Assembly: GCA_022709755.1 (NCBI GenBank)
Contig: JAKLIF010000009.1
Coordinates: forward strand, 10,694-74,693
Length of the DNA: 64,000 nucleotides
Direction of reading: 5' to 3'
Origin: Elusimicrobiota bacterium
GTDB lineage: Bacteria > Elusimicrobiota > Elusimicrobia > FEN-1173 > JAKLIF01
Position numbers and translations under genes: made by a program. The first letter of the stretch is position 1. Each line of letters opens with the position of its first letter. The notes under the pieces are model-generated. The model searched no databases. It was not told where the DNA came from and saw only the letters and a program-made list of their open reading frames with translations. Below, piece after piece: positions 40,724 through 64,000 of the stretch.

Positions 40724-43492
40724 TCAGGATCCCGGAACCCGGAAAACGTTCTGGACGTCGGGGTCGTTGGGGCGCATCATCCTCAGTTGCTGCCAATACC
40801 CGATGGCCTGCTCGCGCAGGTTCACCCGGGTGTAAAGGATGGCCACCCCCTTCATGGCCTCGAAGACCGCGTTCTCCTTGTTCACATACAATGTCTTCGC
40901 CTGTTCCAAACCTTTCAGATAGGCCTCTTCCGCCTTCTTGAAGGGCTCCATCGTCCGAGGATCCGTTCGAGGGGATTGTGGGAGGGCCTCCTGCAACCAG
41001 ACGAAATAAAGCCGGCCGAGGTTCATATACGTCTCGACGTTGCGGTCCGGATACTTCGCGTTGAACCGCAAGGCGCCCTGATACGCCTGAGCGGCCTTCT
41101 CGTATTCGTGCCTCATGTAGTGGATATAGGCGATGCGATAGTAGTTGGGCGGAAAAACGGGATCGAGGTTCCGGTAGAGCCCGAAATTTTTCAGCGCCAG
41201 ATTCCAATACTTTTCTGTCTGTTTTCTGTCTCCCCAATAATTGGCCTGGTCCCCCATTTTCAGATAGATCAATCCCACCTGGTGGTGCGTCTGCACGTAG
41301 TTCGGCGCCAGCTGTTTCGTCCATTCATACGTCTCGAGTCCCTTGAACCACAGTTCCTGGGACCGTTTCTTGAGTTGGATGGCCTGGTCCCGATTCCCCT
41401 TCTGGAGCGCCTCGACGCTCTGGTTATGGATCGTCGATCCCCAATCGTTGTACACGTTCCCGATGAAATAACGCGCCATCGGAAAGAACGGGTTCAGGCG
41501 GCAGACCGTCTTGTAATGCTCCAAGGCGCCCCCCACTTGTTGGTATTCCGCCTGCATGTCCGCCGGAAGATTTCCGACGGACGCTTCGTATTCCGCCGAC
41601 CGAGTCCAGATGCCCTGTTTGGAAAAAAAGATCGCCAAATTGTGGTTCACATCGGCCATGAAGAAGTTCCGGAAGACGCCGGTCCCCCAGAGGAACAATC
41701 CCAACAGGACGACCAGCGCGCCGCCCTGCACCAACGAAATGCCTTTGAACGATTTCTCCAGGATATCGGAAGCCAACCCGGCCGGGACCGGCGTCGGGTC
41801 TTCGGGGACGAGATGCCATTCGAGGCATTCCCCCAGCAGCCAGAAAGAGGCCACCGTCAAGACCACGGGACCCAGGGACATATTGAGGCTCATGAAAATG
41901 ATCAACCAAAAAGACCAGACCCCGACACGGACCCATCGGTCCAACGGGGACCGCTCGTCCTGCCTCGCCGGTAAAGGATCGTTGCGGATGAAGCTGGCCA
42001 CCGCGCCCGGCAACAGGCCGGAATAGATACCGGAGGAGACGAAACGGATGGAGACGTCGACGAACCAGTGGATGAGGCCCCCGCAATAAGCTCCCAGATA
42101 TCCCAACAGGTAATAAGCCCTCGGTTCGAGTTCCTCGCCCTCCGACGGAGGGGCCCGGGAGGAGACGGTCAGCCGATAGAGGGCGCGCGCGCCGCCGATG
42201 ATGATGGTCGCCAGGAGCCAGAGGAAGATTCCGAACCCGATCAAACCCTCGTCATACCAGACCTCCAGATACTCGTCTTCCGCATGGTCCGTTTCGGTGT
42301 TCGACTTCCCCTCGATGAGGATGATCTCCGGCCGGCGGTACGCCGGATACGAGACCTTGAACGTCCCGATGCCGGTGCCCAACAGCGGCTGGGTGCGGAT
42401 CATCTCCCAGGTGGCGATCCACGTGAACGTCCGGAAGTTGACGGAGTTCATCCGCCGGCGGGCATAATGAGTCACGATGGCGAGAGTGAACACGAACAAC
42501 AGGATGATGAAAACGAGCAATCGGCGGCTGAAGAGACGCCGGTGGTTACCGGTGAAGAACAACCCCACGAAGATGGAACTCACGATCAGGGCTCCCGAAA
42601 AACCGATCCAGGCGCCCTTGGTCTCGGTGGCGTAAAGGTTAAGAAAGAGACCCGCCCAGAACAGCAACATGGCCGCGGCGGAAGCCGTCGGATTCTTCCA
42701 CCAGATGACGATCTGCAGAGCGACCAGGAAAAAGAGCACGCCCGCCTGGACCCATCCCCGTGAAGAGACATCCACTCCACCGAACATTCCCAGCAAGAGT
42801 TTATCCGCCCCCCACATCAGCGCCACCATGAGAGCCGTCACCAGATAGGGACGGAACACCTGTCCCCGGCTCTTCAGATGGATCGCCAGGAGGAGCGGTG
42901 TCATGATCACCAGGAAGTTTCCGAAGAAATTGGGGTTTCCGAACGTCGAGAAGACGCGCGGGCCGAACGCAAAACGCCAGACGAACGGATCCAGCCCGCC
43001 GGACTGGCCTGGCGGGAACAACCGCGTGTCGAAATATTGGATCACGCCGTAGACCACCACAATCGCCAGAGCCGCCAGCAACCAACGCAGAAGGCGGCGA
43101 TGACGCTCATAACTGCGGAACTCCAGAAGGACGATCAACCCCATGCCGATGTAGAACATCCGTCGCAGGAACTCGTCCACGCTCATCGGGAGGAACGACG
43201 AATGAACGAACGAGATGATCCCCGAGACCATCATGGCCACCAGCGGGGCGGCCAACAGCCAATCACGCCCCCGGATCGGCCAACGCCGCTCCAGGACGAG
43301 CTGCCCGACCCACAAGAGGAAAATCGCGGTGCAACCGATCTGAGTGAGCGTGATCTTGATCTGGGCGGAATCATACGTGCGGAGGTAGAATGCGATGGTG
43401 ACCAGGAAATAAACGATGGGCAACGCGTGAGCGATCACGCGAGAGAAAAGGTCCGCCAGCACGCTGCGAGGTGTCCCGGTGTCCGTCATCAT
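40724..43492 (-). CDS. O-antigen ligase (Wzy_C)-family membrane protein fused to C-terminal TPR repeats (larger paralogue)
   Basis: 922 aa from ATG 43492 (ATGA overlap with the upstream stop). The multi-TM N-terminal half carries YATETKGAWIGFSGALI and HAEDEYLEVWYDEGLIG. The C-terminal TPR units include ARYFIGNVYNDWG, HHQVGLIYLKMG, YYRIAYIHYMRHEY and YMNLGRLYF. The track start is 43795. Confidence 0.75.
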   Translation of the reverse strand: MMTDTGTPRSVLADLFSRVIAHALPIVYFLVTIAFYLRTYDSAQIKITLTQIGCTAIFLLWVGQLVLERRWPIRGRDWLLAAPLVAMMVSGIISFVHSSFLPMSVDEFLRRMFYIGMGLIVLLEFRSYERHRRLLRWLLAALAIVVVYGVIQYFDTRLFPPGQSGGLDPFVWRFAFGPRVFSTFGNPNFFGNFLVIMTPLLLAIHLKSRGQVFRPYLVTALMVALMWGADKLLLGMFGGVDVSSRGWVQAGVLFFLVALQIVIWWKNPTASAAAMLLFWAGLFLNLYATETKGAWIGFSGALIVSSIFVGLFFTGNHRRLFSRRLLVFIILLFVFTLAIVTHYARRRMNSVNFRTFTWIATWEMIRTQPLLGTGIGTFKVSYPAYRRPEIILIEGKSNTETDHAEDEYLEVWYDEGLIGFGIFLWLLATIIIGGARALYRLTVSSRAPPSEGEELEPRAYYLLGYLGAYCGGLIHWFVDVSIRFVSSGIYSGLLPGAVASFIRNDPLPARQDERSPLDRWVRVGVWSFWLIIFMSLNMSLGPVVLTVASFWLLGECLEWHLVPEDPTPVPAGLASDILEKSFKGISLVQGGALVVLLGLFLWGTGVFRNFFMADVNHNLAIFFSKQGIWTRSAEYEASVGNLPADMQAEYQQVGGALEHYKTVCRLNPFFPMARYFIGNVYNDWGSTIHNQSVEALQKGNRDQAIQLKKRSQELWFKGLETYEWTKQLAPNYVQTHHQVGLIYLKMGDQANYWGDRKQTEKYWNLALKNFGLYRNLDPVFPPNYYRIAYIHYMRHEYEKAAQAYQGALRFNAKYPDRNVETYMNLGRLYFVWLQEALPQSPRTDPRTMEPFKKAEEAYLKGLEQAKTLYVNKENAVFEAMKGVAILYTRVNLREQAIGYWQQLRMMRPNDPDVQNVFRVPGS

Positions 43493-44478
43493 ATCGTCGG
43501 CCGCCGCGCGGCGGAGGAGGACGGCGTTTCCCCGCCGAACCGCCACCCCATCGAGATCCGATGGGATATTCCCAGATCCCCCAACGGGATGAACGCGTAG
43601 TCCATCCCCAACAGACCCAGGCGGAAACCGACACCGGCAGTCACACCCGTCGCGGCTCCCAAATCCGGATCTTCGGAGCGGTAAACATAACCCGCCCGGA
43701 GGAACGCGTTCTTCCTCCAAGACATCTCCACCCCGAAAGACCCGCCGGGATCGGAAGAAGGGCGCAGATAACCGTCCAATTCCCATTGGAACCAATTCCG
43801 CGATTTACAATAGACCGCCGCCCGAACTTCCGTCGGGGACGGGGACGATTCCGAAATGAATTTCACCGGTGTGCCCACGTTCCGGATGAGCCCGCCCACG
43901 CGCCATTGATGGTCCACGCGGTATACGACCCCCGCATCCCCCAGGACGCAGACGGCGCTCTCATCGTCCAGGACCTCCTGAGCCACCTTGACGGAGGCGC
44001 CCCAGGCCATGTTATAGGTCAACCGCTGGCCCCAACTGAGCGAGAGCATCTGATCCCCCGCGTCCACTTCGCCGGATTCGACATAGCGGGTACTGCCCGT
44101 TCCCGTCGCGGACGGATCGAATTCCGTATGGGCGATCCCTCCGATGGACATATAACTGACGGCCGCTCCCCACCCGCCTTTCGGCGTCGGCGATGTGTAG
44201 GACAGCGACTGGGCGGTCATGTCATCGAGATGGGTTGTGTGCAAAACGGACACCTCTCGAGAGACCGTATGGGCCAGTCCCGCCGGGTTCGAGAACACGG
44301 ATTGGGATTCCCCCACGCGCGCCACAGTGGCTTCGGCCATGGCCGCCGATATCGGAGAGGGATTCATGGACAGGAATGAAAGGCTTTCCCCTCCCGCCGA
44401 GAAAGAGGGCCGAGGGAAAAGGAGGGTGAAGACGCTGAGAAACAGGATTTTCTTGATGATGTTGTTGTCGAACCGCAT
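43489..44478 (-). CDS. PorV/PorQ-like (UPF0164-type) outer-membrane beta-barrel protein
   Basis: Signal peptide MRFDNNIIKKILFLSVFTLLFPRPSFSA. It is followed by FLSMNPSPISAAMAEATVARVGESQSVFSNPAGLA, which matches the PorV-family N-terminal pattern ending in NPAGL. The rest shows alternating beta-strand character and ends in an aromatic-rich strand. The track start at 44523 lies inside tRNA-Thr. Confidence 0.6.
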   Translation of the reverse strand: MRFDNNIIKKILFLSVFTLLFPRPSFSAGGESLSFLSMNPSPISAAMAEATVARVGESQSVFSNPAGLAHTVSREVSVLHTTHLDDMTAQSLSYTSPTPKGGWGAAVSYMSIGGIAHTEFDPSATGTGSTRYVESGEVDAGDQMLSLSWGQRLTYNMAWGASVKVAQEVLDDESAVCVLGDAGVVYRVDHQWRVGGLIRNVGTPVKFISESSPSPTEVRAAVYCKSRNWFQWELDGYLRPSSDPGGSFGVEMSWRKNAFLRAGYVYRSEDPDLGAATGVTAGVGFRLGLLGMDYAFIPLGDLGISHRISMGWRFGGETPSSSAARRPTI

Positions 44479-44496
44479 GGGAGTCAAATTCCAGAG

Positions 44497-44569
44497 AGCC
44501 GAGGATGGGACTTGAACCCACAACCTATCGCTTACGAAGCGATTGCTCTACCAATTGAGCTACCTCGGC
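44497..44569 (-). tRNA. tRNA-Thr (anticodon CGU)
   Basis: Folded by hand from the reverse complement: GCCGAGG TA GCTC AATTGGTA GAGC A ATCGC TTCGTAA GCGAT AGGTT GTGGG TTCAAGT CCCAT CCTCGGC T. All four stems pair. 73 nt; CCA is not encoded. Confidence 0.9.
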
Positions 44570-44726: not shown

Positions 44727-44752
44727 GGCTCGGTGCTTCGAAAAAAATAATG

Positions 44753-44825
44753 TGCCGAGGGACGGAATCGAACCGCCGACACACGGTTTTTCAGACCGCT
44801 GCTCTACCGACTGAGCTACCTCGGC
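44753..44825 (-). tRNA. tRNA-Phe (anticodon GAA)
   Basis: Reverse complement: GCCGAGG TA GCTC AGTCGGTA GAGC A GCGGT CTGAAAA ACCGT GTGTC GGCGG TTCGATT CCGTC CCTCGGC A. 73 nt; CCA is not encoded. The acceptor stem is identical to that of tRNA-Thr. Confidence 0.9.
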
Positions 44826-46152: not shown

Positions 46153-46179
46153 TACTGGAAACCGAAGATGCCGCGCCCG

Positions 46180-47472
46180 TCAATCGATTCGGAACGAACG
46201 CAATATCTGTTCGAAAGGGATCAGATACTTGGCGATGGATTCCGGAGTGACGGCGCACAGGACGACGTATCCGGTCTCCTCCCGGACGACGAACAAAGCC
46301 TTGTATTGCTGAGTCCCGCCCAGCCAGCCGGGGCCCTGATATTGACCGAGATACCCGTATCCGGCGGGATAATAGACGTCGCGGCCGTTCAACAACATCC
46401 AATGTTCCTGGCGGGCGACCTTCTCGGCATAATCCCGCGCACGGACGCCGGTCCCGACGACCTGCCGCCGGAGTTCGCCCCATCCGCCCCCATCCCGCTG
46501 TTCCCGGAACAGGATCAGCGCCCTCCGCCTCGGAGGCGTCCATATCCACTGATCGGGGAGAGACAACCGAATCCCCCATTTGGCGTTGATGTAGGAGGCA
46601 CCCTCCGTCTTTCCCCTGTCATCCCCCGCAAGGTGCGGCAGGCGGAGTTTCATGTCCTGATACGCATCGAACCCCTCCACCAACTCCCGTTTCCCCACGG
46701 ACATGTTCTCGATGTAACGGCGGCACTCCAGGATCCGCGCGTCCGTCGGGGGATGGGTCCGGAAGAAGGTGTCCCATTTTTCCAGTCCCTCCTGCTTTTC
46801 CAACCGGAGCAACCTCTCGAAAAAAGCCAATGCCGCCTCCGGATTGTACCCGGCCGAAATCGCGTAACGGGTCCCCACGCGGTCCGCTTCCAGTTCGTAC
46901 TCCCGGCTGTATCCCAACAGGTACAGGTCCGTAAAAAGTCCGGCGGTCTGGGCGATCATGATCATCGCTTCCGGTCCCGCCGTCACTCCTCCGGCGATCG
47001 CCCCCAACGTTCCCAAGACCCCGTAGCCCATCTGTTTTTCGATCATGTTCACGGAATGCCAGGCACAGACATGCCCGACCTCATGACCCAATACGATCGC
47101 CAACTCCGCCTCGCTGGTCAACTCCTCCAAGAGGCCTCGCGTCACGAACACGTATCCCCCGGGCACGGCGAAGGCGTTGATGATGTCGGAATCCAATATG
47201 GTGAAGACGAACGGCAGGCGGGGGCGGTCGCTATAGGTGACGAGCTTATTGCCGATCCCTTCGACGTAGGATTGAAGGACGGGATCGTGGAACTCCCCGT
47301 ATTCCTCGACGAGCTGGGCTTTGGTCTCAAGACCGATCTGGCGTTCGGCGTTCTCCGAGATCAACTGGGCTTCACGCCGGTTGGTCACCGGATTTCGGAC
47401 GCACGCCGCCCCCGCGAGGACGACGGCGACACAGGTCCCCACTGTCCCCCGAACAACGCGATTCATGGGCAT
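46180..47472 (-). CDS. M48-family zinc metalloprotease, probable lipoprotein
   Basis: The lipobox-like signal is VAVVLAGAAC. HEVGHV (HExxH) is followed by a downstream EADRVG glutamate. There is an extra ~170-aa C-terminal domain of unknown type. Confidence 0.8.
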   Translation of the reverse strand: MPMNRVVRGTVGTCVAVVLAGAACVRNPVTNRREAQLISENAERQIGLETKAQLVEEYGEFHDPVLQSYVEGIGNKLVTYSDRPRLPFVFTILDSDIINAFAVPGGYVFVTRGLLEELTSEAELAIVLGHEVGHVCAWHSVNMIEKQMGYGVLGTLGAIAGGVTAGPEAMIMIAQTAGLFTDLYLLGYSREYELEADRVGTRYAISAGYNPEAALAFFERLLRLEKQEGLEKWDTFFRTHPPTDARILECRRYIENMSVGKRELVEGFDAYQDMKLRLPHLAGDDRGKTEGASYINAKWGIRLSLPDQWIWTPPRRRALILFREQRDGGGWGELRRQVVGTGVRARDYAEKVARQEHWMLLNGRDVYYPAGYGYLGQYQGPGWLGGTQQYKALFVVREETGYVVLCAVTPESIAKYLIPFEQILRSFRID

Positions 47473-47497
47473 CGTGCTTCCGCCGCTCCCAAGGAGA

Positions 47498-47929
47498 TTA
47501 TTTCAGTTTATAGATATAGTCCCCTCGGCGCATCTTGTCCGTGACCTTGATCCCGACTGCCGACGCTGTCTCCGCGGAGCGGACGGCCACATGCTCGATC
47601 TGCATGGAACTCACGGTCATCGTCACGTCGGTCGTGTGCCCTCGAACGCGAAGCCGGTCACCAACCCGGATCGGCGCCTTCAACACCGTGGTGATCACTC
47701 CGATATGCCCGTAATAATCCTCCACCGTCCCGATCCATGCTTCACCGGGATCAGCGACCCGCCAAGGGAGGATCGGGTTCTGATTCTTCGATTTCTTCGT
47801 TTTGGCTCTTCCGGCTTTCGCTTTCACCTTCGAGCCCGCCGCCTTTTTGGCGATCCGCTTCGTCGTCCGAACGGCTTTCCGAACCGTCTTTTTCTTCGTC
47901 ACTTTTTTCTTGGTCGTCTTTTTCTTCAT
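47498..47929 (-). CDS. Lys/Ala-rich (histone-H1-like) tail fused to an EF-Tu-domain-2-like beta-barrel
   Basis: ATG 47929 has GAGGAGG 8-9 nt upstream. The first ~55 aa are KKKTTKKKVTKKKTVRKAVRTTKRIAKKAAGSKVKAKAGRAKTKKSK. The C-terminal ~85 aa, IGTVEDYYGHIGVITTVLKAPIRVGDRLRVRGHTTDVTMTVSSMQIEHVAV...AVGIKV...GDYIY, resembles the translation-factor domain II barrel. Confidence 0.6.
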   Translation of the reverse strand: MKKKTTKKKVTKKKTVRKAVRTTKRIAKKAAGSKVKAKAGRAKTKKSKNQNPILPWRVADPGEAWIGTVEDYYGHIGVITTVLKAPIRVGDRLRVRGHTTDVTMTVSSMQIEHVAVRSAETASAVGIKVTDKMRRGDYIYKLK

Positions 47930-47970
47930 GCTCACGTTCCTCCTCGATTCGCAACAACCAACCGATTTCA

Positions 47971-48690
47971 TTATACCGCATATTTCTGTCGAAATCGCTC
48001 GCGATTCCTCTCAAAAAGCTCTTTCGTGTAATGACGGTTCTTCCCCGTGGTCCCGCGCCCGTGATGAAGGACATGAATCCCCGGATGCGCCCACAAATGA
48101 TATCCGGCCCGATGCGCCCGGACGGAAAGGTCCACGTCCTCCCAATAGGCGAAGAACGACTCGTCGAAACCGTTCAGCCCTTCGAAGAGATTCCGGGTGA
48201 CGTAATAGCAAGAACCGGGGATATATTCGGGGAAAGCCAAGCGCCGCGGTTTTTCCGGCATGTTTCGATAATGGGACAACGTATTGGACGGGGGATCCCA
48301 GGATCCCCCGCAAGAATCCAACCGGGTGCGATCCCGGACGAAATGGACCGCCGGAGCCAGCATGTCCACCCGTCGATCGCGCAGAAACCGATGAAGCGCC
48401 GGACGCGGATCCTCGGAAAGGACACAATCGTTGGAGAGGAAAAGAGCGTCGGGAGACGATCGGAACGCCGCCCTCAACCCCTGATTCGCCCCATATCCAT
48501 ATCCCCCGTTCTTTTCCAAGCGGAGCATCGGCAAAGAGGGATAACTCTCACGGATTCGGATCCAATGTCTCTCCTCGGACCCATTGTCGACCCAGAGGAT
48601 GTCCTTCGCTCCGATCCCGCATTCCAGACATGACTCCAAACAGGCCGTCGTCAATCGCGTCTTATTGAACGACAGGACGACAAAAATCAT
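47971..48690 (-). CDS. Glycosyltransferase family 2
   Basis: MIFVVLSFNKTRLTTACLESCL, ILWVDNGSEE and FLSNDCV (DxD-type position), plus a later YWEDVDLSVRA. Confidence 0.8.
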   Translation of the reverse strand: MIFVVLSFNKTRLTTACLESCLECGIGAKDILWVDNGSEERHWIRIRESYPSLPMLRLEKNGGYGYGANQGLRAAFRSSPDALFLSNDCVLSEDPRPALHRFLRDRRVDMLAPAVHFVRDRTRLDSCGGSWDPPSNTLSHYRNMPEKPRRLAFPEYIPGSCYYVTRNLFEGLNGFDESFFAYWEDVDLSVRAHRAGYHLWAHPGIHVLHHGRGTTGKNRHYTKELFERNRERFRQKYAV

Positions 48691-48720: not shown

Positions 48721-51285
48721 ATGATTTTATGTAAAATGAATCCCGATACGATTCCGACCATGAGATCACTCTTACGGCTCCGATTCCTCCGTCTCGCCGG
48801 CCCCCTCCTCTTCCTCTTGTCCTGGGCCGGCCCCGACACAAGCCGGGCCGCCGACATCCCGGCGGCCTCGCCCGTGAGTCTGGCCCCCGAGTTTCAGCCG
48901 CGCCCGATACGACTCCCGCCTCTGTTCTGGCACGAGAAGGACATCCGGGAGAGACAACGCCTCCTCATGGTGCTCATGCTCTACTGGGATTATCAGGAAG
49001 AGGCCAGTTCGCACAAACTCCTCCTCCCCGTCTTCTATCGATGGAAGGAGGAGGACAGAAGCCTGATCGTGTCCCTTCCCCTCTATTTATCATACAAAAG
49101 TCCGGATGATTATTGGACCCTGGCCGGACCGTTCTACCGTCACGACGACCCCCAACGGAAGCGAACGGCCCTCTTCCCCCTTTATTGGAGCACGAAGAAG
49201 AGCAACGGGGGACGCATGACGGTGGCTCTCCCTTTCGTCTTTTACGATTACTCCAATCCCCTTGAAAACCGCCGGGACTTCGTGTCCCCCTTCGGCTGGT
49301 TCCGGCAGCGCCCCTCCACCTCGACGGGTTTCCTGCTCAACTACTGGTGGAAGACGGAGAGTTCCTCCCGATTCAGGACGCTGTTCCCCGTCTATTGGCA
49401 TCTGTGGAGTCCCGGAGACAGACTGGACGTCTGGGGTTTATTCTATCGGCGGGAAACGGACGACAAGAAATGGGCGGGACTGTTCCCCCTGGCGGGGGCC
49501 GGATGGGGCCGGGGATTGGCGTCCCACTATCTCTTTCCGGTCTATTATTATTCACACGACGAGGACGAGACGGCCTTTGCCACGCTCCTGGCGAGCCGGA
49601 TCCGCTCGCCCGACTCGACGAAAGGGCACCTGGGACTCTACTATTACTCCGTCAATCCCGACGAACGGATCCACGGTCTCTTCCCGATCTGGCATCACAG
49701 CCGCTCCTCGGACGATTACAGCCGGCGCACGTGGTTCCTGCTCTATTACAGCCGGAAAGAAAACGATTCCCGTTTCCATACCCTGTTCCCGTTCTACGGT
49801 TACTGGGAATCCCCGGAGAAGAAACGGTTCCTCTCCTGGTTGTATCTCCGGACGGAACAGGAGGACACCGTCTCCGGCTGGGCCGGACTGTATCGATGGA
49901 AAAAAGAGGGGGCCGACGAGACCAACGTCTTCTTCCCCCTCTACTGGCATTTCTGGCGAGATCCGGACTGGGGATTGGACGTCTTTTTCCCGCTCTATCT
50001 GAGGTGGAGGGACGCCGATTCGTCTCTGACGGCGATCCCGCCGTTCCTCTGGCGGAAGAAGGGATCGCGCACGACCTGGAGCCTGTTCTTCCTGCTCTGG
50101 CGCGACCGGGACGCCGACCGGGGATTCACTACGATGTTCCCGCTCTTCCATTCCATGTACGACCCTCAACGCTCCCAGTTTTTCTCGCCCATCGCCTGGA
50201 GACGGAAGAGCCGCCTCTCGAGGGAAGGGATTGTGCCGCCCGTCTATTGGTATCGGAGCGCCGAGATCAAACGACTATTCGTGATCCCGGTCTATTGGAG
50301 CGTCCAACATCCGGAGAAAAGACTGCTCATCGTGCCGCCCTATTATTCCTGGAAGGATTTCGACAGCCGGATTTACGGCCTGTTCCCCCTCTGGGGACAC
50401 CATCGGGAGCAGGACCGGCATGGCGGCTACCTCTTCCCCTTCTATTGGTATTCCAAAAAGACGACGGGAGACGGTGTCTGGATCATCCCGCCTCTGTTGA
50501 CCTACATCCAGAAAGACCGGTCCGGCACGCCGGACTCGGCGCTCCACGTCCAATACCTGATCTTGGGCGATTATTCCAGGAAGAGAGAGGATCTCGAGCA
50601 CGGTTTTTTCCCCCTCTATAAATACGTCTCCTCTCCGGAACGAACGAACTTCTGGGCCCCGCGCATCCTGGCCCTGACCGCCTGGGACCGTCGCGGCGAA
50701 TCGCGCCAGGGATATTTTTTTCCCTACGCCTGGAAACGGGCCCCCGACCGCCGATGGGATTTTCTCTTCCCCCTCTGGTACCGCCACGACGAGACCCGTC
50801 TCGAAGACAACACCACGAGCCGGCTCCGCATCTTCTTCCCTCTCTATTGGAGTGGAACCAACACCCGGCGCGAATGGCGATATTTCGTTCCTCTCTACGC
50901 CCGTTTTTCCTCCGCACATGGAAACCGGTTCCGAGCCGTCACGCCCCTCTACATGAGCTATCAGAACGACCGGGGGAACAGGTTCCGGATGATCTTCCCC
51001 CTCTACTGGCGTTTTGCATCCGCGAAAAGGGATATCTCCATTTACGGGCCTTGGTACCGGACGACCGGCCTGAAGAACGGGAGGACGACGCGAACGGTCG
51101 GGTTGGCTCCCTTCTTCTCCAAGTCTTCGGCCGGGCCGGATGACAATTATTTCGAGCTTCTCGGAGGTCTGTTCGCGAGGGACGTGCAGGAAGGACAGCG
51201 TCGGTTCCGGTTCCTGTATTTCTTCTATACGAAACCGAAGCCGTTGGGCGATCCCGCCCGGAGCGCCCCTCCGTCCGCCGATTAA
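48721..51285 (+). CDS. Secreted aromatic-rich repeat protein (about 40 FPLYW-type units), unknown family
   Basis: 854 aa. Alternative starts are ATG 48736 or ATG 48760; the last gives a clean signal peptide MRSLLRLRFLRLAGPLLFLLSWAGPDTSRA. From aa ~60 to ~800, an ~18-22-aa unit recurs with the core hydrophobic-Pro-[LVFI]-aromatic: LFPLYWST, LFPVYWHLW, LFPVYYYS, LFPIWHHS, LFPFYGYW, FFPLYWHFW, FFPLYLRW, MFPLFHSMY, VIPVYWSV, LFPLWGHH, LFPFYWYS, FFPLYKYV, FFPYAWKR, LFPLWYRH, FFPLYWSG, FVPLYARF, VTPLYMSY, IFPLYWRF. Confidence 0.75.
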   Translation: MILCKMNPDTIPTMRSLLRLRFLRLAGPLLFLLSWAGPDTSRAADIPAASPVSLAPEFQPRPIRLPPLFWHEKDIRERQRLLMVLMLYWDYQEEASSHKLLLPVFYRWKEEDRSLIVSLPLYLSYKSPDDYWTLAGPFYRHDDPQRKRTALFPLYWSTKKSNGGRMTVALPFVFYDYSNPLENRRDFVSPFGWFRQRPSTSTGFLLNYWWKTESSSRFRTLFPVYWHLWSPGDRLDVWGLFYRRETDDKKWAGLFPLAGAGWGRGLASHYLFPVYYYSHDEDETAFATLLASRIRSPDSTKGHLGLYYYSVNPDERIHGLFPIWHHSRSSDDYSRRTWFLLYYSRKENDSRFHTLFPFYGYWESPEKKRFLSWLYLRTEQEDTVSGWAGLYRWKKEGADETNVFFPLYWHFWRDPDWGLDVFFPLYLRWRDADSSLTAIPPFLWRKKGSRTTWSLFFLLWRDRDADRGFTTMFPLFHSMYDPQRSQFFSPIAWRRKSRLSREGIVPPVYWYRSAEIKRLFVIPVYWSVQHPEKRLLIVPPYYSWKDFDSRIYGLFPLWGHHREQDRHGGYLFPFYWYSKKTTGDGVWIIPPLLTYIQKDRSGTPDSALHVQYLILGDYSRKREDLEHGFFPLYKYVSSPERTNFWAPRILALTAWDRRGESRQGYFFPYAWKRAPDRRWDFLFPLWYRHDETRLEDNTTSRLRIFFPLYWSGTNTRREWRYFVPLYARFSSAHGNRFRAVTPLYMSYQNDRGNRFRMIFPLYWRFASAKRDISIYGPWYRTTGLKNGRTTRTVGLAPFFSKSSAGPDDNYFELLGGLFARDVQEGQRRFRFLYFFYTKPKPLGDPARSAPPSAD

Positions 51286-52724
51286 GCGGGGGAGTCGGAT
51301 CTTTTTAAAACGAGGAAGTTCAGAAGAGCTTTCAACCCATCCGCCAACCGGAACAATTCGCGCCAAGACCGGATGCGACAGAGACGTCCGAGCATGTATC
51401 GAGGCCGCAGATAGAACGCCCGATACATCGCGCGGTACATCTCGAGGATCTCGTCGACGGACATCCCGTCGATCCGCATCACGGGTTTGGCCAGGTTGTA
51501 ATCATCCCAGTCATCGGTGAGCAGCCGTCCCTCGCGGCGCGCCTGTTCATACATCTCCGTGCCCGGGAACGGCGTGGTGATATTCACGACCAGGAGCTCC
51601 GGATCGAGTTCTCGGATGAAACGCATGTTCTCCAGGATCACCGCGCGGGTGTCCCCGGGGTTCCCTACCATGAACGCCAAGCGGCAATCGATCCCGGCCT
51701 GTTTGGTCCACGCCACGGCCCGGCGGATCTGATCAAGGCTGATCTCCTTCTTGACGTTCTTCAGGACTGTCTCGCTCGCATTCTCGACCCCGAACATGAT
51801 CTGATGGCATCCCGCCCGGCGCATGAGCCGGAGTTGATCCGGATCCACATGGTTGACCCGGGCGAAGCAGGTCCAAGTGGGCCGATGTGTCCCTTCCATC
51901 AGCAAGCGGCACAATTCCAGGATATTGTTCTTATTCAAAGTCAGCGTGTCATCATAGAACAGGATCTCCCGCACCCCATGGTTATCCATGAGATATCGTA
52001 TCTCCCGGTGGATCGTCGCGGCGCTCTTATAAACAACCTGGGGACCCAGCGTCTTATTGCAGAAGGTGCAATGCCCCGGACATCCGCGCGAGGTGACCAG
52101 GCTCATGGCCGGCAGGTTCTTGAACGTGCCTTTGGCTGGATAATAGCGTGAGATCGGCAACAGGTCATAGGCCGGCATGGGCAAGCCGTCCAGCCGGCCG
52201 ATCCTCGGACGTTCGGGATTCATGACGACCTCGTTTCCCCGCCGATAGGCCAGACCGGCGATCGTCTCGGGGGATCCCCCCGAGAGGAGTTCCGCCAGAG
52301 TGTATTCCCCTTCTCCGCGGACCACGTAGTCGACGAAACCGTTCGACAGGACTTCGGCCGTCTGAAACGTGGCGTGCACTCCGCCGAAGACGATCCGGGC
52401 GTCCGGATAGAACCGTTTCACGATCCGGGCGATATAATAGGCCTTCTTGACCGTCGGCGTCATGGCCGTCAACCCGACGTACCGGATCTCCGAATAGACC
52501 CGCTGATAGGAGCGGACGAAATACTCCTCGAACCCCTCCACCGACGGGCTCATCACGTTGCAATCCACCACGTCCACGGAGAACCCCGTCGACCGTACAT
52601 ATCCCGCCAATTCAGCCAGTCCCAACGGAGGGAAATTCGAACTGATCTGTTCCCAGATGGCTTCCGTGTTCTTGTAAAAGATCGGAGGCGATATCAACAG
52701 ACAATCCAAGGTTTTCGATGTCAT
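51282..52724 (-). CDS. B12-binding-domain (class B) radical SAM protein, 480 aa
   Basis: The N-terminal Rossmann-like region is CLLISPP...PPLGLAELAGYV...VGLTAMT...IVFGGVHAT. The CxxxCxxC triad is SRGCPGHCTFCNK (nt 52059-52082), followed by FYDDT, MFGVENAS and FMVGNPGDT. ATG 52724 forms an ATGA overlap with the upstream stop. Confidence 0.85.
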   Translation of the reverse strand: MTSKTLDCLLISPPIFYKNTEAIWEQISSNFPPLGLAELAGYVRSTGFSVDVVDCNVMSPSVEGFEEYFVRSYQRVYSEIRYVGLTAMTPTVKKAYYIARIVKRFYPDARIVFGGVHATFQTAEVLSNGFVDYVVRGEGEYTLAELLSGGSPETIAGLAYRRGNEVVMNPERPRIGRLDGLPMPAYDLLPISRYYPAKGTFKNLPAMSLVTSRGCPGHCTFCNKTLGPQVVYKSAATIHREIRYLMDNHGVREILFYDDTLTLNKNNILELCRLLMEGTHRPTWTCFARVNHVDPDQLRLMRRAGCHQIMFGVENASETVLKNVKKEISLDQIRRAVAWTKQAGIDCRLAFMVGNPGDTRAVILENMRFIRELDPELLVVNITTPFPGTEMYEQARREGRLLTDDWDDYNLAKPVMRIDGMSVDEILEMYRAMYRAFYLRPRYMLGRLCRIRSWRELFRLADGLKALLNFLVLKRSDSPA

Positions 52725-54961
52725 GGTCTTTTCCCCGGCTCCACCAATCCTCCCATCCAACGGAATTCGCACGGATACCGGCCCCGGTCATCGCGAAACC
52801 AAAACTGATCCGGATCCGGCAACATCTCGACGACCCGCGCCTCCGACGCCTTCAACAGCATGCGGGCGGCGGCCTCGATCAGAAAAAAATTCTTGAAATC
52901 CAACATCATGGGTTTGCGTTCCCCATAGGACTGAATGAACACGTGCCTCGGGAAGCCATAATCCCGCTGGAATCTCAGGAACTCCCGGAACAGGCGCAAC
53001 CCGTTCCCTCCGAAATCATATCGCCCCAAATCCTTCCGGTCAAGCAGCCACCGTTCCCGTTCCAACACGGCCTTCTCGATCTCGATCCGCGGACAATGTT
53101 TGGGAGAGAGTCCGGACAGATAGGCGTGGGGGTAACCGGCATGGGCGATCGATTTGCGCGCATGATATCCCGAAGCGATATCCATCGAATCATAGCGTTT
53201 CCCCCCCGGGGTCAGTTCAATGCCGATGCGGTCATCCTCAAAAATGACACGCGCCCGGCCCGACGGAACACCGCTCGGGCAGGACATCGGGACGGAACAC
53301 CGGTTGGCCGTCCCCACCAGATCGATGAAGTCCAAGAACGAGACATATCTGCAGAAACTCTGTCCGTCATAAAAATACCTATTATCCATGACATGCCCGT
53401 CGACCTCGCCGTAAAAGCGCCGGGCCTTCTCCTCCAGATCCCCCAACGCCTCTTTTCCCCACGCATAGATCAGGCGAAAATAGACCGGGATCGCCTGGGA
53501 ATCATAATCATACTCTCCCAAAACCCAGCGGTATTCCCCCTTGGCGATATCCTCCGCGTCGCCCGCCGCGACGAACAGGTCCCAAAAACTCGCGACGGAA
53601 ACCTTCCCGATCCCCTCCCGTTCGAGCAGTCCGTCCAAAAAATCAAAATCGGACAGACGGCATCGGACCCGATGGGCGTCCATCTTCCCGCTGAACAATT
53701 TTTCCATGTGCTTGCTGATATCGATGTGGATCCGTTCCCCCGAGGGGGATGGTCCGGGATATTTCTTCCGGAACGATTCCAGAACCTCCACGATCTCATT
53801 CCACCAGACGGCCCGGCGGCCCGGCGGATATTGATCCTTCAAAAAGGCGGCCACGTCCCGGGCCCGGGCGACCGTATGCAACAGATACATCTTCCAATGG
53901 ACGGACATCCACTTTTCCACATCCCGTCCGAGTTCGCCCCCGATCCTCATGTCGACGTTCCTCTCCGCGAGATCGAAGAAGAGTCGGCGTCCCATCAATA
54001 TCCGTCCGCTCCCCTCCCGCTCCCCTTCTTCTCCGGTGACGGATTTAAAATATCCCATCAACTCCTCTTCCAGCCGGATTTTCTCGCCGAGCGGCTTCTC
54101 GGACCACAAATCCCCATATCGCCGGAAGCGCCCCAGCACTTGTTCCCAATGGTCTTTCCTCGGGCAATCCGCCGGGAGTCCCCGGACCCAGTCGGACAGG
54201 TCCTCCAACGCATTTCGGCGGCCATGACAGATATAAAGGCCCGAGGAGAGTATCCCGTTGGTGAACAGTCCATCCCACGCGACTCCCGGATCTTCCCCTG
54301 TCCGCCTCAACGCGCGCCGGGTCGTCCCTCTCTCGGAAAGTGCCACCCACTTCAGCTCGTCTCCGGTCAAACCGGGGGAGAGATCGATGTCATTCCTGAA
54401 AAGACGTCCATGATCCATCCGCAATTCCGGATTCAACCGTATCGGCAGATCTTCCTTCAATCCCTCGTCCCGATTCATGGCCTCGGCCAACGCCGCAACG
54501 GCCCACGTTTCCATGAAGGCGACGCGGGGTCGGATCCATCTCCCCGGCTTTTGGACGATCCGGAGGTTGGCCTGCTGTCCTTGGTCATTTCGCCCCCAGA
54601 ACACCGGGCCGAAGTAGGAGTGATTCTCGTTCTTCGCGCAGAAACGCTGCAGATACGAAATGAGAGTGATCTCGCGCTGTCTCATCCGGCTGTTGCGATT
54701 CGGGATCTCTCCTGCGACGATGTTCCGCCCATAGAAACCCCTGTTCTGCAGATAGAGTGCTTCTCGGACATCGGGCCGGAGAAACGTCTCGTAGAGCAGT
54801 CGCCGTTTCTCCTCCAACTCCTCGTGAAAGGGCCTCTCGTCCTCTGTCCCGGCCTGCAACAGGGCATACGTCCGATCGAAGGAGAGCCGGCCGAGCAGCT
54901 CATATTCGATTCCCGTCGACCTGACGATGAACTCAGGCAAGAACTCCCATTTCCCCGTCAT
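52721..54961 (-). CDS. LanB-N-terminal-like (lantibiotic dehydratase glutamylation-domain / PEARL-like) protein, no elimination domain
   Basis: 746 aa from ATG 54961 (ATGA overlap). The N-terminal FLPEFIVRSTGIEYELL matches the LanB f.vR.P.lp pattern. ISYLQRFCAKNENHSYFGPVFWG (nt 54593-54655) matches LanB kYl.R...R.TPFGlF.G. The C-terminal GFPRHVFIQSYGERKPMMLDFKNFFLIE...VVEMLPD matches LanB glPryv.l..gDneL.ldL.n......l...l.E. The protein ends there. By-eye similarity; no HMM was run. Confidence 0.55.
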   Translation of the reverse strand: MTGKWEFLPEFIVRSTGIEYELLGRLSFDRTYALLQAGTEDERPFHEELEEKRRLLYETFLRPDVREALYLQNRGFYGRNIVAGEIPNRNSRMRQREITLISYLQRFCAKNENHSYFGPVFWGRNDQGQQANLRIVQKPGRWIRPRVAFMETWAVAALAEAMNRDEGLKEDLPIRLNPELRMDHGRLFRNDIDLSPGLTGDELKWVALSERGTTRRALRRTGEDPGVAWDGLFTNGILSSGLYICHGRRNALEDLSDWVRGLPADCPRKDHWEQVLGRFRRYGDLWSEKPLGEKIRLEEELMGYFKSVTGEEGEREGSGRILMGRRLFFDLAERNVDMRIGGELGRDVEKWMSVHWKMYLLHTVARARDVAAFLKDQYPPGRRAVWWNEIVEVLESFRKKYPGPSPSGERIHIDISKHMEKLFSGKMDAHRVRCRLSDFDFLDGLLEREGIGKVSVASFWDLFVAAGDAEDIAKGEYRWVLGEYDYDSQAIPVYFRLIYAWGKEALGDLEEKARRFYGEVDGHVMDNRYFYDGQSFCRYVSFLDFIDLVGTANRCSVPMSCPSGVPSGRARVIFEDDRIGIELTPGGKRYDSMDIASGYHARKSIAHAGYPHAYLSGLSPKHCPRIEIEKAVLERERWLLDRKDLGRYDFGGNGLRLFREFLRFQRDYGFPRHVFIQSYGERKPMMLDFKNFFLIEAAARMLLKASEARVVEMLPDPDQFWFRDDRGRYPCEFRWMGGLVEPGKRP

Positions 54962-57228
54962 CGCTCCAATCCCCCCATCCACCGGAACTCCGCCGTATAG
55001 CGGCCTCGTTCATCCTGAAACCACAAGTGTTCGGGATCGGGAAACATCTCCACGATCCGAACCCGTTCACACTTTTTGATCATCTTCGCGAGGACTTCGA
55101 TCAGGAAATAATTCTGGAAATCCAGCAACACCGGTTTCCGCTCCCCGTGGACGCGCACAAACACGTGCCGGGGAAATCCATGATCCCTCCGGAACCGGCT
55201 GAACTCGCGCAGAAGGTCCAGCCCCCGCCGTCCGAAGTCATAGGCCCCGAGGTCGTCCCGGTTCAGTAGCCACTGTTCCCGTTGCAAGACGGCCTTTTCG
55301 ATCTCGATGCGCGGGCAATGTTTCGGCGATACTCCGGCCAGATACGCATGGGGATAGACCAGGTCTCCCAGAGCTCCCTGCCCCATCGAATCCCATTTTA
55401 GGTCCACCGATTCACAGAGGGATCCGTCCGTCGCGTTCCGTATCAGGATCCGCCCGCCACGGACGACGGCTTGGAGCTCCCCGGCGGGGGTCCTGTTCGC
55501 GCAACGCACGGGCAGACTGCATCGTGTGGTCTCATCGACGATATCGGCCCCCTCGATCGCCACATACCGAAAAGGCTGTTTCCCGTCATAGTAGCACCGG
55601 AACGCATACCGCTCCCCGCCCCCCGTGTATCGACGGAGATACCGGGTCAAATCCCGCGGCGAGCCCCGCATCCAGGCGAAGGCGATGTAGTGATTCGAAA
55701 ACAGAACATCCGTCTTATAATGATGCTCACCGAGAACCCACTGATAATTCCCTCTTTCAATCTCTCGCCGATTTTCGGCGGACAAAAGGATGTCCCAGGA
55801 AACCGCGAACCGTTCCGACAAGACACCTTCCGAGGCGATCATGTCATCCAGAAAATCAAAGTCAGCCAGGCGGCAGGAGATGACATGCCCGTCCATCCGC
55901 GTCCCGAACAACCGTTCCATCCTCTTCGTGATCTCCAGATGAATCCTCTGTCCGGACGGGGTATGGGCCGGATGAGAGCGCTGATATTCCTCCCACTTCC
56001 CGATCAATTCCCCCCACCACACGTTCCCCCTTCGCCCGTCGATATAGTCTTTCAGATAACCCCGGGCGTCCCTCACACGCGCCATCGTCTGCAACAGGCA
56101 CAGCTTCCAGTGGACCGACAGCCACTTTTCCACGTCGCGGCCCAATTCCCCGCCGAGGGTCAACGCCGCATTCCGGTGGGCTTCCTCGAAATACAACCGA
56201 CGGCCCACATAGATCTTGCCGCTCGTCTCCCGGACCGCCCGTTCACCCGTCAGTTGGGCGAAATCGTCCATCATCTTCTGTTCCAGGGCGATTTTATCTT
56301 CCAACGATCGAGCGGCGATTTCTTTTTCAGCCTTCCGGAACCGCCCCAGCACGCCGAGCCAATGGCGCCGTCGAGGATGTATCCTTGGGAGATCCTTAAC
56401 CCATTGGATCAGTTCACCCAATGAATCCGCCCTTCCGCGGCAAACATAGAGCCCCTGGGTGAGCAAACCCTTGGCAATCACGCCGGCGAGAGCCGCCCGG
56501 ACTCCTTCTTCTCCCGACGAGGGAGCCAAAGCCCGTTGAACACCGCCGACCGTGCCCCCCCCGGCGGCCAATGACAAGCAGGCGCATTCGATCCGGCTCA
56601 ACCGCCCCGTGAGATCCTCCTCCGCCCGATAGACATGCCCCCGTGAGATCCTCAGATCGTGAGCGAGCCGGATCGGCAGGAATTCCCGAAGGGCCTCATC
56701 GGAACCGATCGCGCGGGCCAACGCCTCGACGGCCCACGTCTCCATAAAAGCCCGACGTTTCTTCAACCACCCGCCGACACCCCTCGTCAACCGCAAGGAT
56801 GCCGTCGCCTTCCCGCTTCGTTTCCCCCAAAAAATCGGACCGAAATAGGCATGTGTCTCATTCTTGCCGCAGAAGCGCTGGAGATACAGGATCAACTTAT
56901 TGTCCGTCACCCGATCATGCTTATTCCTCGTCCTCTTCCCATCGTTTTCAAAATCCTTCATCATCCGCCGATAGACGCCGCTGTTCTGCAAATAGACGGC
57001 CTCCCCCAGATCGGCTCGCAGGAAAATCCCGTGGAGCGCCTTCTGTTTGTCCGACAATTCATCGCGGAATATACGGGCGATCTTCTCCTCGTCGACACAA
57101 GAAGCCGCCCCCCGTATCCCCTCCCACGCGCGATAGGTTTTATCGAATGAAAACCGCTCCATCAACTCATACTCCATCCCGGTCGTGCGCACCACGAATT
57201 CGGGCATGAAGCTCCACCGGGATTTCAT
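54958..57228 (-). CDS. LanB-N-terminal-like protein, paralogue of 52721..54961
   Basis: 756 aa from ATG 57228 (ATGA overlap). It is collinear with its neighbour along the whole length: FMPEFVVRTTGMEYELM, ILYLQRFCGKNETHAYFGPIFWG, GGELGRDVEKWLSVHWKL, HAYLAGVSPKHCPRIEIEKAVL, GFPRHVFVRVHGERKPVLLDFQNYFLIE and RYTAEFRWMGG. Confidence 0.55.
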   Translation of the reverse strand: MKSRWSFMPEFVVRTTGMEYELMERFSFDKTYRAWEGIRGAASCVDEEKIARIFRDELSDKQKALHGIFLRADLGEAVYLQNSGVYRRMMKDFENDGKRTRNKHDRVTDNKLILYLQRFCGKNETHAYFGPIFWGKRSGKATASLRLTRGVGGWLKKRRAFMETWAVEALARAIGSDEALREFLPIRLAHDLRISRGHVYRAEEDLTGRLSRIECACLSLAAGGGTVGGVQRALAPSSGEEGVRAALAGVIAKGLLTQGLYVCRGRADSLGELIQWVKDLPRIHPRRRHWLGVLGRFRKAEKEIAARSLEDKIALEQKMMDDFAQLTGERAVRETSGKIYVGRRLYFEEAHRNAALTLGGELGRDVEKWLSVHWKLCLLQTMARVRDARGYLKDYIDGRRGNVWWGELIGKWEEYQRSHPAHTPSGQRIHLEITKRMERLFGTRMDGHVISCRLADFDFLDDMIASEGVLSERFAVSWDILLSAENRREIERGNYQWVLGEHHYKTDVLFSNHYIAFAWMRGSPRDLTRYLRRYTGGGERYAFRCYYDGKQPFRYVAIEGADIVDETTRCSLPVRCANRTPAGELQAVVRGGRILIRNATDGSLCESVDLKWDSMGQGALGDLVYPHAYLAGVSPKHCPRIEIEKAVLQREQWLLNRDDLGAYDFGRRGLDLLREFSRFRRDHGFPRHVFVRVHGERKPVLLDFQNYFLIEVLAKMIKKCERVRIVEMFPDPEHLWFQDERGRYTAEFRWMGGLER

Positions 57229-59375: not shown

Positions 59376-59392
59376 CGCACGACCGCCGAACG

Positions 59393-59424
59393 GGACAAAT
59401 GAACCGTCGACGGTTCATTTGTCC
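59393..59424. repeat. Perfect 32-bp palindrome (16+16, centred on GTCGAC) at the junction between two radical SAM genes
   Basis: ggacaaatgaaccgtc|gacggttcatttgtcc, verified base by base. It covers the TGA stop (59415-59417) of the upstream gene and ends 18 nt before the ATG (59375) of the downstream gene. No U-tract follows it on the coding (minus) strand. Confidence 0.95.
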
Positions 59425-61532: not shown

Positions 61533-61592
61533 GCCGGATATCTCATCCTTTCACTTTTCGCAACAGCCTATCAGCCATAACTGTTCCCGCCA

Positions 61593-63734: not shown

Positions 63735-64000
63735 GCGGCCCCCCCCCGACTCCACACGTCGGCCGACACCTGTTTCCCGGCGGATTCGCCGATCACGGCT
63801 CTCTCCACCCGATGAAATCCCAGGCGACCGACTATTTCCTCAGACTCGTTCTCTGGCGCCGGATCATCCGGGCCGATGAAAGCCAAGCATCCCCCGGAGG
63901 ACAAGACATCCCCCACGGACGCCAAAGTTTCCCGAAGGGACCTATCCCGTTTGAGTCGCTCCGCCATCCCCTCGACGATGACCGCTGGATACCGTTCGGA
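63731..64000 (-). CDS. 3' end of a gene continuing beyond the window; its C-terminus resembles the methyltransferase-like tails of the downstream radical SAM paralogues
   Basis: The reverse frame is open from 64000 down to the TGA at 63731 (...PERYPAVIVEGMAERLKRDRSLRETLASVGDVLSSGGCLAFIGPDD...). LSSGGCLAFIGPD aligns with LAVGGSMIFLERD and VAQGTVVFIRD. The track lists only the internal Met at 63967. Confidence 0.6.
   Translation of the reverse strand, partial: SERYPAVIVEGMAERLKRDRSLRETLASVGDVLSSGGCLAFIGPDDPAPENESEEIVGRLGFHRVERAVIGESAGKQVSADVWSRGGAA

Follow-up and report, generated by a model that had tools for sequence, protein, structure and literature searches.

Within a 64,000-nucleotide (nt) stretch of a contig from an Elusimicrobiota bacterium (JAKLIF010000009.1, positions 10,694 to 74,693 of the forward strand; this whole stretch is hereafter the window), we characterized a gene for an 854-amino-acid (aa) protein, here termed the repeat protein, that consists almost entirely of short aromatic hairpins typified by the residues FPLYW. 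Its 44 hairpins follow one another without interruption from aa 65 to 832 and are predicted to form a single antiparallel meander of 88 strands. In this model, the amphipathicity runs across the width of the ribbon rather than face versus face: an uncharged aromatic keel, ~10 Å deep, runs without a break along one long edge, and the opposite edge is charged. The protein belongs to a large family of FPLYW hairpin proteins that has no name, Pfam model, solved relative or literature that we could find. We tentatively favour a role as a peripheral belt or scaffold of the cell envelope that would insert into a membrane by its edge, most likely at the periplasmic face of the outer membrane. Two features are unusual: a single meander of 88 strands is predicted with confidence, and a greasy tip followed by an aromatic collar, an Arg belt and an acidic turn recurs throughout the family. 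The combination yields a testable idea of how a protein could engage a membrane leaflet over tens of nanometres.

The repeat is evident from residue composition and spacing. Phe, Tyr and Trp account for 7.7%, 6.8% and 5.0% of the residues (19.6% aromatic), Arg for 10.5% and Pro for 7.8%, while Asn and Gln are scarce (1.9% each). A strict core pattern, [FILV]P[LVFIP][YWF], occurs 20 times, compared with 1.06 ± 1.0 occurrences (maximum 5) in 2,000 shuffles; a looser pattern finds 26 cores and a hidden Markov model (HMM) of the unit finds 29. An earlier reading of this DNA from its letters and open reading frames (ORFs) by themselves (the sequence-only reading) had already pointed to the high Trp, Tyr and Phe content and had counted about 28 clear units, which is near the HMM count, and the structure model gives 44 hairpins. 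In hairpins lacking a clear core, the FPL turn has degenerated to GL, LL or PP. Because Pro, aromatic and charged positions show autocorrelation maxima at lags of 17, 16 and 33 and the distances between cores are 16–19 residues or multiples thereof, the repeat period is 17 aa and not the 18–22 aa given by the sequence-only reading. Each unit comprises, in order, strand B (x-R-x-R/x-V/T-L), a greasy turn (F-P-L), strand A (Y-W-x-x-R/W-x) and a polar turn (P/G/S/D, then D/E/G), with each turn 2–3 residues long. No tandem repeats were found at the DNA level inside the gene, indicating that the units are old and diverged.

Structure prediction with AlphaFold2, based on an alignment of 24 orthologue sequences, gave 88 strands of 5–6 residues and no helix for the full-length protein (aa 69–832; mean predicted local distance difference test (pLDDT) score 75, predicted template modelling score (pTM) 0.35) and 43 strands for a fragment covering aa 113–472 (mean pLDDT 91.3, pTM 0.52). 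As the 44 hairpins are joined by very short turns, the array is predicted to be one continuous antiparallel meander, in line with the β-hairpin repeat proposed earlier. Foldseek searches of the PDB returned neither a good global match to the full model nor any closed barrel that matched well. Teneurin YD shells were the most significant matches to the full model (E = 1.6e-9, probability 1.0), though with a template modelling (TM) score of only 0.12, and further matches included the ApoB100 β-belt, LptD and engineered OspA. For the fragment, the search recovered the TCP10/G-box domain of CPAP (4bxp; target TM-score 0.53, root mean square deviation 6.4 Å over 167 columns, probability 1.0) and OspA variants (probability 0.9–1.0), and only 4bxp and OspA reached a meaningful TM-score. 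A viral structure library gave only generic meander, tail-fibre and MORN matches (TM-score ≤0.16). From the matches to open single-layer sheets we infer that the model represents an open narrow ribbon of 88 × ~4.8 Å, or ~40 nm if extended. The sequence-only reading had instead suggested a barrel or solenoid; the best analogues are open sheets and a YD strip, all at low TM-scores, and the alternating hydrophobic strand pattern required of a transmembrane barrel is absent.

The polarity of the hairpin was tabulated by grouping residues according to their distance from the FPL turn, using the strand register of the model and the alignment of 24 orthologues. The greasy turn is dominated by Pro (31%), Leu (29%) and Phe (17%). 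Rung 0, where Y/F/W stand opposite L/F/V, has 0% charged and 49% aromatic residues, and rung 1 (W/Y opposite V/L) has 3% and 38%, so that the tip, comprising the FPL turn and rungs 0–1, is uncharged on both faces of the hairpin. Rungs 2–3 are mixed and include Arg (25–29% charged, 21–25% aromatic), rung 4 carries ~40% Arg on both strands (56% charged, 4% aromatic), rung 5 contains R/S/D/E (48% charged, 4% aromatic) and the polar turn consists of G/D/E/P. Along this axis, the Wimley–White interfacial score is +0.63 at rung 0 and decreases progressively, reaching −0.63 in the polar turn.

Two sequence-level observations independently agree with this width-wise polarity. First, insertions and deletions of at least 6 residues among 22 closer orthologues (37–56% identity) fall mainly after aa 247, 698 and 768, with fewer after aa 378, 396 and 563; these sites are confined to turns on the polar edge, and the FPL turns are free of them. 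In the most distant homologue (P0026, 31% identity), insertions also occur at four additional positions. Hairpin number is nonetheless conserved one-to-one among orthologues, which range from 844 to 915 aa in length. Second, the same polarity is found around 6,248 cores of 285 distant family members, where charged residues make up 0–3% at positions −3 to +3 relative to the Pro and 35–51% at positions ±6.

The family extends well beyond the Elusimicrobiota. A word-indexed search returned 250 proteins at E ≤ 0.001, about 25 of which are orthologues (800–915 aa, 36–52% identity), and every named one of these comes from Elusimicrobia metagenome-assembled genomes. Other matches among the 250 are 1,000–1,450 aa long, 20–27% identical and derived from Polyangia/Myxococcota and Bacteroidota. 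An exhaustive profile search recovered 1,351 clusters (50% identity) at E ≤ 1e-3, with 874 remaining at E ≤ 1e-10 and 316 at E ≤ 1e-30, and family lengths reached ~2,000 aa. A profile built from distant members added Bacteroidia, Tenuifilaceae (one isolate genome included) and Spirochaetia, and many Bacteroidota members measured 1068–1078 aa. We define the family by an array of ~17-aa hairpins (17–21 aa in distant members) that follows a signal peptide and in which an uncharged [FL]-P-[LFIV]-[YFW]-[WY] tip is combined with flanks rich in Arg/Lys, and the repeat protein fits this definition. The members that are named represent at least four diderm phyla (Elusimicrobia, Polyangia/Myxococcota, Bacteroidota and Spirochaetia), and Leptospira also falls in this range if the naming of the LA_1737 model in NCBIfam counts as evidence. 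All members found carry the label 'hypothetical protein'.

Existing resources recognize this family poorly. A Pfam scan of the repeat protein gave no match even at E ≤ 10, and no domain family reached the gathering score in 36 distant or long members (scanned as sets of 7 and 29), the only signals being sub-threshold EB/DUF7107 matches in two proteins of the smaller set and a stray Transposase_31 match in the larger. There are thus no accessory domains that hint at function, and the repeat lies outside named Pfam families, as had been supposed. A sequence-profile search of the PDB likewise found no relative (best E = 0.79). The sole NCBIfam match was to NF047486 (LA_1737_Cterm), with 40.6 bits against a cut-off of 60 (E = 2.4e-10) over three stretches; an orthologue (P0022) scored 35 bits, one Polyangia member scored 63.3, above the cut-off, and most distant members matched below it. 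This Leptospira model, the only curated one to recognize the FPLYW repeat, describes a 158-aa C-terminal domain, whereas the array here spans ~800 aa and the individual matches cover 50–90 residues. On these sequence scores, the repeat is related to the uncharacterized LA_1737 family, but by the curated cut-off the protein falls outside it. Literature searches on LA_1737 brought up nothing except papers on tomato and mosquitoes that have no bearing on the family, and searches on β-hairpin repeats and single-layer sheets returned nothing on an FPLYW hairpin family. β-hairpin repeats are known, but the FPLYW family is undescribed, widespread and distinctive in its polarity.

The gene itself is well supported. 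The ORF and translation proposed in the sequence-only reading were confirmed, and the third-position GC of 0.76 matches that of real genes in the window (0.65–0.77), a signature missing from the shadow ORFs that overlap the gene in other frames. Judged from its sequence, the repeat protein is Sec-exported and very basic, with a predicted isoelectric point of 9.7, a net charge of +33 and a mass of ~98 kDa for the mature form. Cleavage is predicted after MRSLLRLRFLRLAGPLLFLLSWAGPDTSRA and before ADIP, the lipobox Cys is absent, and N-terminal hydrophobic segments comparable to this signal peptide are present in most orthologues, consistent with the secretion suggested earlier. The start of the gene is uncertain: candidates are 48721 (the longest ATG), 48736 (Met6, the start of the database copy) and 48760 (Met14), of which Met14 is the probable true start as the best fit to the signal peptide. 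At the other end, the last hairpin is conserved (LGGLFARDVQEGxRRFRFLYFFYT) and orthologues stop a few residues past LYFFYT; the tail behind this hairpin does not finish on an aromatic residue, the C-terminus being ...TKPKPLGDPARSAPPSAD. Neither the sequence nor the AlphaFold2 model contains a C-terminal domain beyond the repeats. A promoter and terminator scan revealed nothing exceeding shuffle expectation, and no paralogues of the repeat protein were found within the window.

In the explanation that we favour, the protein would be exported to the periplasm, where the ribbon would act as a structural protein of the cell envelope. Its greasy keel would be buried in one membrane leaflet, with Phe, Leu and Pro among the acyl chains, Tyr and Trp at the interface, Arg facing the phosphates and the acidic turns exposed to water. 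Most likely this would be the outer membrane, approached from its inner (periplasmic) face, and on it the ribbon would form a long belt, arc or scaffold instead of serving as a peptide precursor, enzyme or pore. Insertion into a leaflet is suggested because the succession of residues between tip and base follows leaflet depth preferences, which are captured by the Wimley–White scale and seen in the aromatic belts of membrane proteins.

Several points weigh against this explanation. The overall shape of the ribbon is drawn solely from low-TM Foldseek matches (pTM 0.35 and 0.52 for the two models), and the signal peptide was judged by eye. A greasy edge could be buried equally well if the ribbon self-associated or coiled, and the aromatic and Arg-rich composition also suits glycan binding. 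Lastly, only by curving into an arc or ring could a twisted β-ribbon hold one of its edges in a planar membrane, and the model does not show such curvature. A bolder form of the idea, which we regard as distinctly unlikely, is that the family represents a new class of diderm envelope protein in which a single chain of 60–200 strands makes a ribbon that extends for tens of nanometres and has an unbroken edge that seeks lipid. If it were true, the ribbon could close into a giant half-embedded outer-membrane ring or, alternatively, serve as a membrane-shaping belt or an inter-membrane lipid rail, on a principle distinct from that of the AsmA/TamB groove proteins.

Self-burial of the greasy edge is a rather unlikely alternative to the envelope belt. 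Here, two ribbons would pack keel to keel, or one ribbon would coil into a helicoid, solenoid or RHS/YD-like shell, giving a soluble periplasmic or secreted fibre or cage. The top rank of the teneurin YD shells among Foldseek matches to the full model favours such an arrangement, as does a hairpin number that is fixed within clades and would suit a defined closed object, and AlphaFold2 monomer models of strips of this kind often do not close. RHS/YD shells, which include teneurins, the Tc toxin TcB–TcC and bacterial Rhs proteins, are moreover strips of ~20-residue aromatic hairpins. However, TM-scores to YD shells are just 0.12–0.16, neither Pfam nor NCBIfam reports an RHS/YD match (PF05593/TIGR01643) and the YD motif is missing. 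The strands, at 5–6 residues, do not reach the length seen in YD shells, a plug or C-terminal cargo domain is lacking, the model does not appear closed, and the greasy and polar edges are non-complementary for the edge-to-edge spiral packing of a shell.

We consider it improbable that the 88 strands form a giant outer-membrane β-barrel or half-embedded crown, that is, a single-chain ring ~13–15 nm across. Such a ring would be a natural way for a meander to hold one edge in a planar membrane, the number of hairpins is fixed, and the protein resembles outer-membrane β-barrels (LptD with 26 strands, SprA with 36) in being an exported all-β meander from a diderm. There are also weak Foldseek matches to LptD and BamA complexes, and some Myxococcota members finish on an aromatic residue (...AGW). 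Against this, the strands are only 5–6 residues long with turns of 2–3 residues at both ends, and the hydrophobic zone is the tip, about two rungs on both faces, rather than an in/out alternation over 9–10 residues. The C-terminus (...PPSAD) has no terminal β-signal, no outer-membrane protein family matches, the models do not appear to close and open sheets are the closest analogues. On strand length and hydrophobicity pattern, we reject the reading as a transmembrane barrel.

A glycan-binding ribbon seems about as improbable as the ring. In that case a ladder of Tyr/Trp and Arg, with ~9.6 Å per hairpin, would run along a polysaccharide such as peptidoglycan, a capsular polysaccharide or an exopolysaccharide, and the protein would serve as an envelope ruler or tether. 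The disaccharide repeat of peptidoglycan or cellulose is ~10 Å. The hairpin pitch is near this value, the aromatic and Arg composition is suitable, and the divergent GT2 glycosyltransferase gene in the window, together with M23 peptidase and LpoB/LPP20 genes near orthologues, hints at wall or glycan biology. However, both faces of the tip are hydrophobic, with many Leu, Phe and Pro residues, unlike polar, hydrogen-bonding sugar sites. Asn and Gln are as scarce as noted above, neighbouring genes are not conserved across phyla, and Pfam and NCBIfam show no carbohydrate-binding module, LysM, SPOR or choline-binding match.

Genomic context bears on a further proposal. The repeat gene is a solitary plus-strand gene with minus-strand genes on both sides (Table 1), and its TAA shares a TTAA with that of the convergent gene on its 3′ side, as correctly described before. 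That gene belongs to a six-gene cluster with four B12-binding radical SAM proteins (496, 716, 705 and 720 aa) and two proteins (753 and 772 aa) that match just the N-terminal lantibiotic-dehydratase domain and show no match to the C-terminal elimination domain. The cluster resembles a tailoring cluster of the type that modifies ribosomally synthesized and post-translationally modified peptides (RiPPs). To place the gene in context, 15 Elusimicrobiota orthologue loci were compared, with flanks of up to 10 kb, and homologues of the six cluster genes were found in none of them (0/15); the repeat gene is the sole gene shared between the window and orthologue loci. Because of this, and because members in other phyla stand alone or have other partners, the repeat gene is regarded as autonomous, and its adjacency to the radical SAM genes as a local accident of this genome. 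The sequence-only reading had also raised the speculation that the protein is a substrate of the neighbouring enzymes and proposed checking whether homologues co-occur with the radical SAM/LanB operon; with such genes at 0 of 15 loci, the functional link is refuted.

The idea of a giant repetitive RiPP-like precursor for the B12-radical SAM/LanB-like enzymes draws on adjacency, the overlapping stops and the repetitive sequence, but it is effectively refuted, since the genes are convergent, the 854-aa protein carries a Sec signal peptide while the domain scan detects no export signal in the tailoring enzymes, the 15 orthologue loci lack the enzymes, the family occurs across phyla beside unrelated housekeeping genes, and orthologues are kept one-to-one as a predicted folded 88-strand protein. 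For annotation, this means that the repeat gene should not be counted within the radical SAM/LanB biosynthetic cluster.

Orthologues and distant members have partners of their own. In most Elusimicrobiota orthologue loci (L001–L006, L011–L014 and L016), a coiled-coil protein of 75–78 aa ending in PRRW and a Dabb (PF07876) protein of 97–98 aa are encoded immediately upstream of the repeat gene. As these partner genes sometimes overlap its start, the arrangement suggests an operon. Further upstream, five loci have a divergent cluster encoding LpoB, a 460–480-aa protein and two LPP20 lipoproteins, and an M23 peptidase gene is often found downstream of the repeat gene. Myxococcota-type members (~1,260–1,290 aa) are immediately preceded by a conserved gene for a secreted ~180-aa protein without a Pfam match, which is itself preceded by glyA in two of three loci, while Bacteroidota and Spirochaetia members stand alone amid housekeeping genes. 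None of the coiled-coil, Dabb, lipoprotein-cluster, M23 or ~180-aa partner genes is present in the window, and among the loci compared no partner is conserved across phyla.

Structurally, the modelled protein works like known single-layer meander sheets and YD strips but is a member of none of these groups, because all sequence-model tests were negative and the global fold match is weak. The TCP10 (G-box) domain of CPAP/SAS-4 and engineered OspA also arrange consecutive short-strand hairpins in one open sheet. They have ~20 strands versus 88, show no sequence relation (no PF07202 match) and do not have the polarity of greasy tip and Arg base; the G-box is moreover eukaryotic and cytoplasmic and OspA is a spirochaete lipoprotein, unlike the repeat protein. 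MORN repeats form elongated single-layer hairpin sheets, some of which have been proposed to lie on membranes. MORN proteins were among the viral-library Foldseek matches, but they have a Gly-rich 23-aa consensus and much shorter arrays, and the repeat protein has no PF02493 match. More generally, no Pfam match to MORN, choline-binding or other named hairpin repeats was obtained for the repeat protein.

Table 1. The repeat gene, its parts and neighbouring features. Coordinates here and throughout are positions in the 64,000-nt window (position 1 = first letter), except in the last row, which gives positions in the loci named.
Feature	Position	Strand	Remarks
Repeat-protein ORF	48721..51285	+	ATG start; 854 codons + TAA
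Predicted Sec signal peptide, aa 14–43, MRSLLRLRFLRLAGPLLFLLSWAGPDTSRA	48760..48849	+	read from sequence by eye
Short Pro/Ala-rich linker, aa 44–64	48850..48912	+	low model confidence (pLDDT <50 for residues 1–67)
Repeat array, aa 65–832, 44 predicted β-hairpins (88 strands)	48913..51216	+	~17-aa unit
C-terminal tail, aa 833–854, YFFYTKPKPLGDPARSAPPSAD	51217..51282	+	after conserved last hairpin
TTAA common to both convergent TAA stops	51282..51285	.	repeat gene and B12-radical SAM gene (51282–52772, minus)
Six-gene cluster	51282–63755	minus	convergent, 3′ of repeat gene; extends to window end
GT2 glycosyltransferase	47971–48690	minus	5′ side, divergent from repeat gene
157-aa protein, N-terminal half strongly Lys-rich	47498–47971	minus	no Pfam match
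M48 peptidase	46180–47472	minus	
tRNA-Phe(GAA)	44752–44825	minus	
tRNA-Thr(CGT)	44496–44569	minus	
Myxococcota-type ~180-aa partner	L007 7450–8004; L008 7397–7924; L009 7439–7981		38–71% mutual identity

On the 5′ side of the repeat gene, the divergent glycosyltransferase gene starts just 30 nt upstream of the ORF and heads a minus-strand run. The gene for the Lys-rich protein has a one-base overlap with the upstream GT2 gene and is separated by 26 bp from the downstream M48 gene, and the run also includes a response regulator gene. Two very long mirror ORFs lie antisense to genes in the window: 46168–47544 (plus) lies opposite 46180–47472 (minus), and 52718–55000 (plus) lies opposite 52721–54982 (minus). 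In both pairs, codon-position GC and Pfam matches identify the minus-strand frames as the genes. The ORFs listed across the two tRNA genes are artefacts. Positions 43489–44523 (minus) encode a 344-aa protein with a probable signal peptide and a weak match to the uncharacterized family UPF0164 (E = 1.6e-6).

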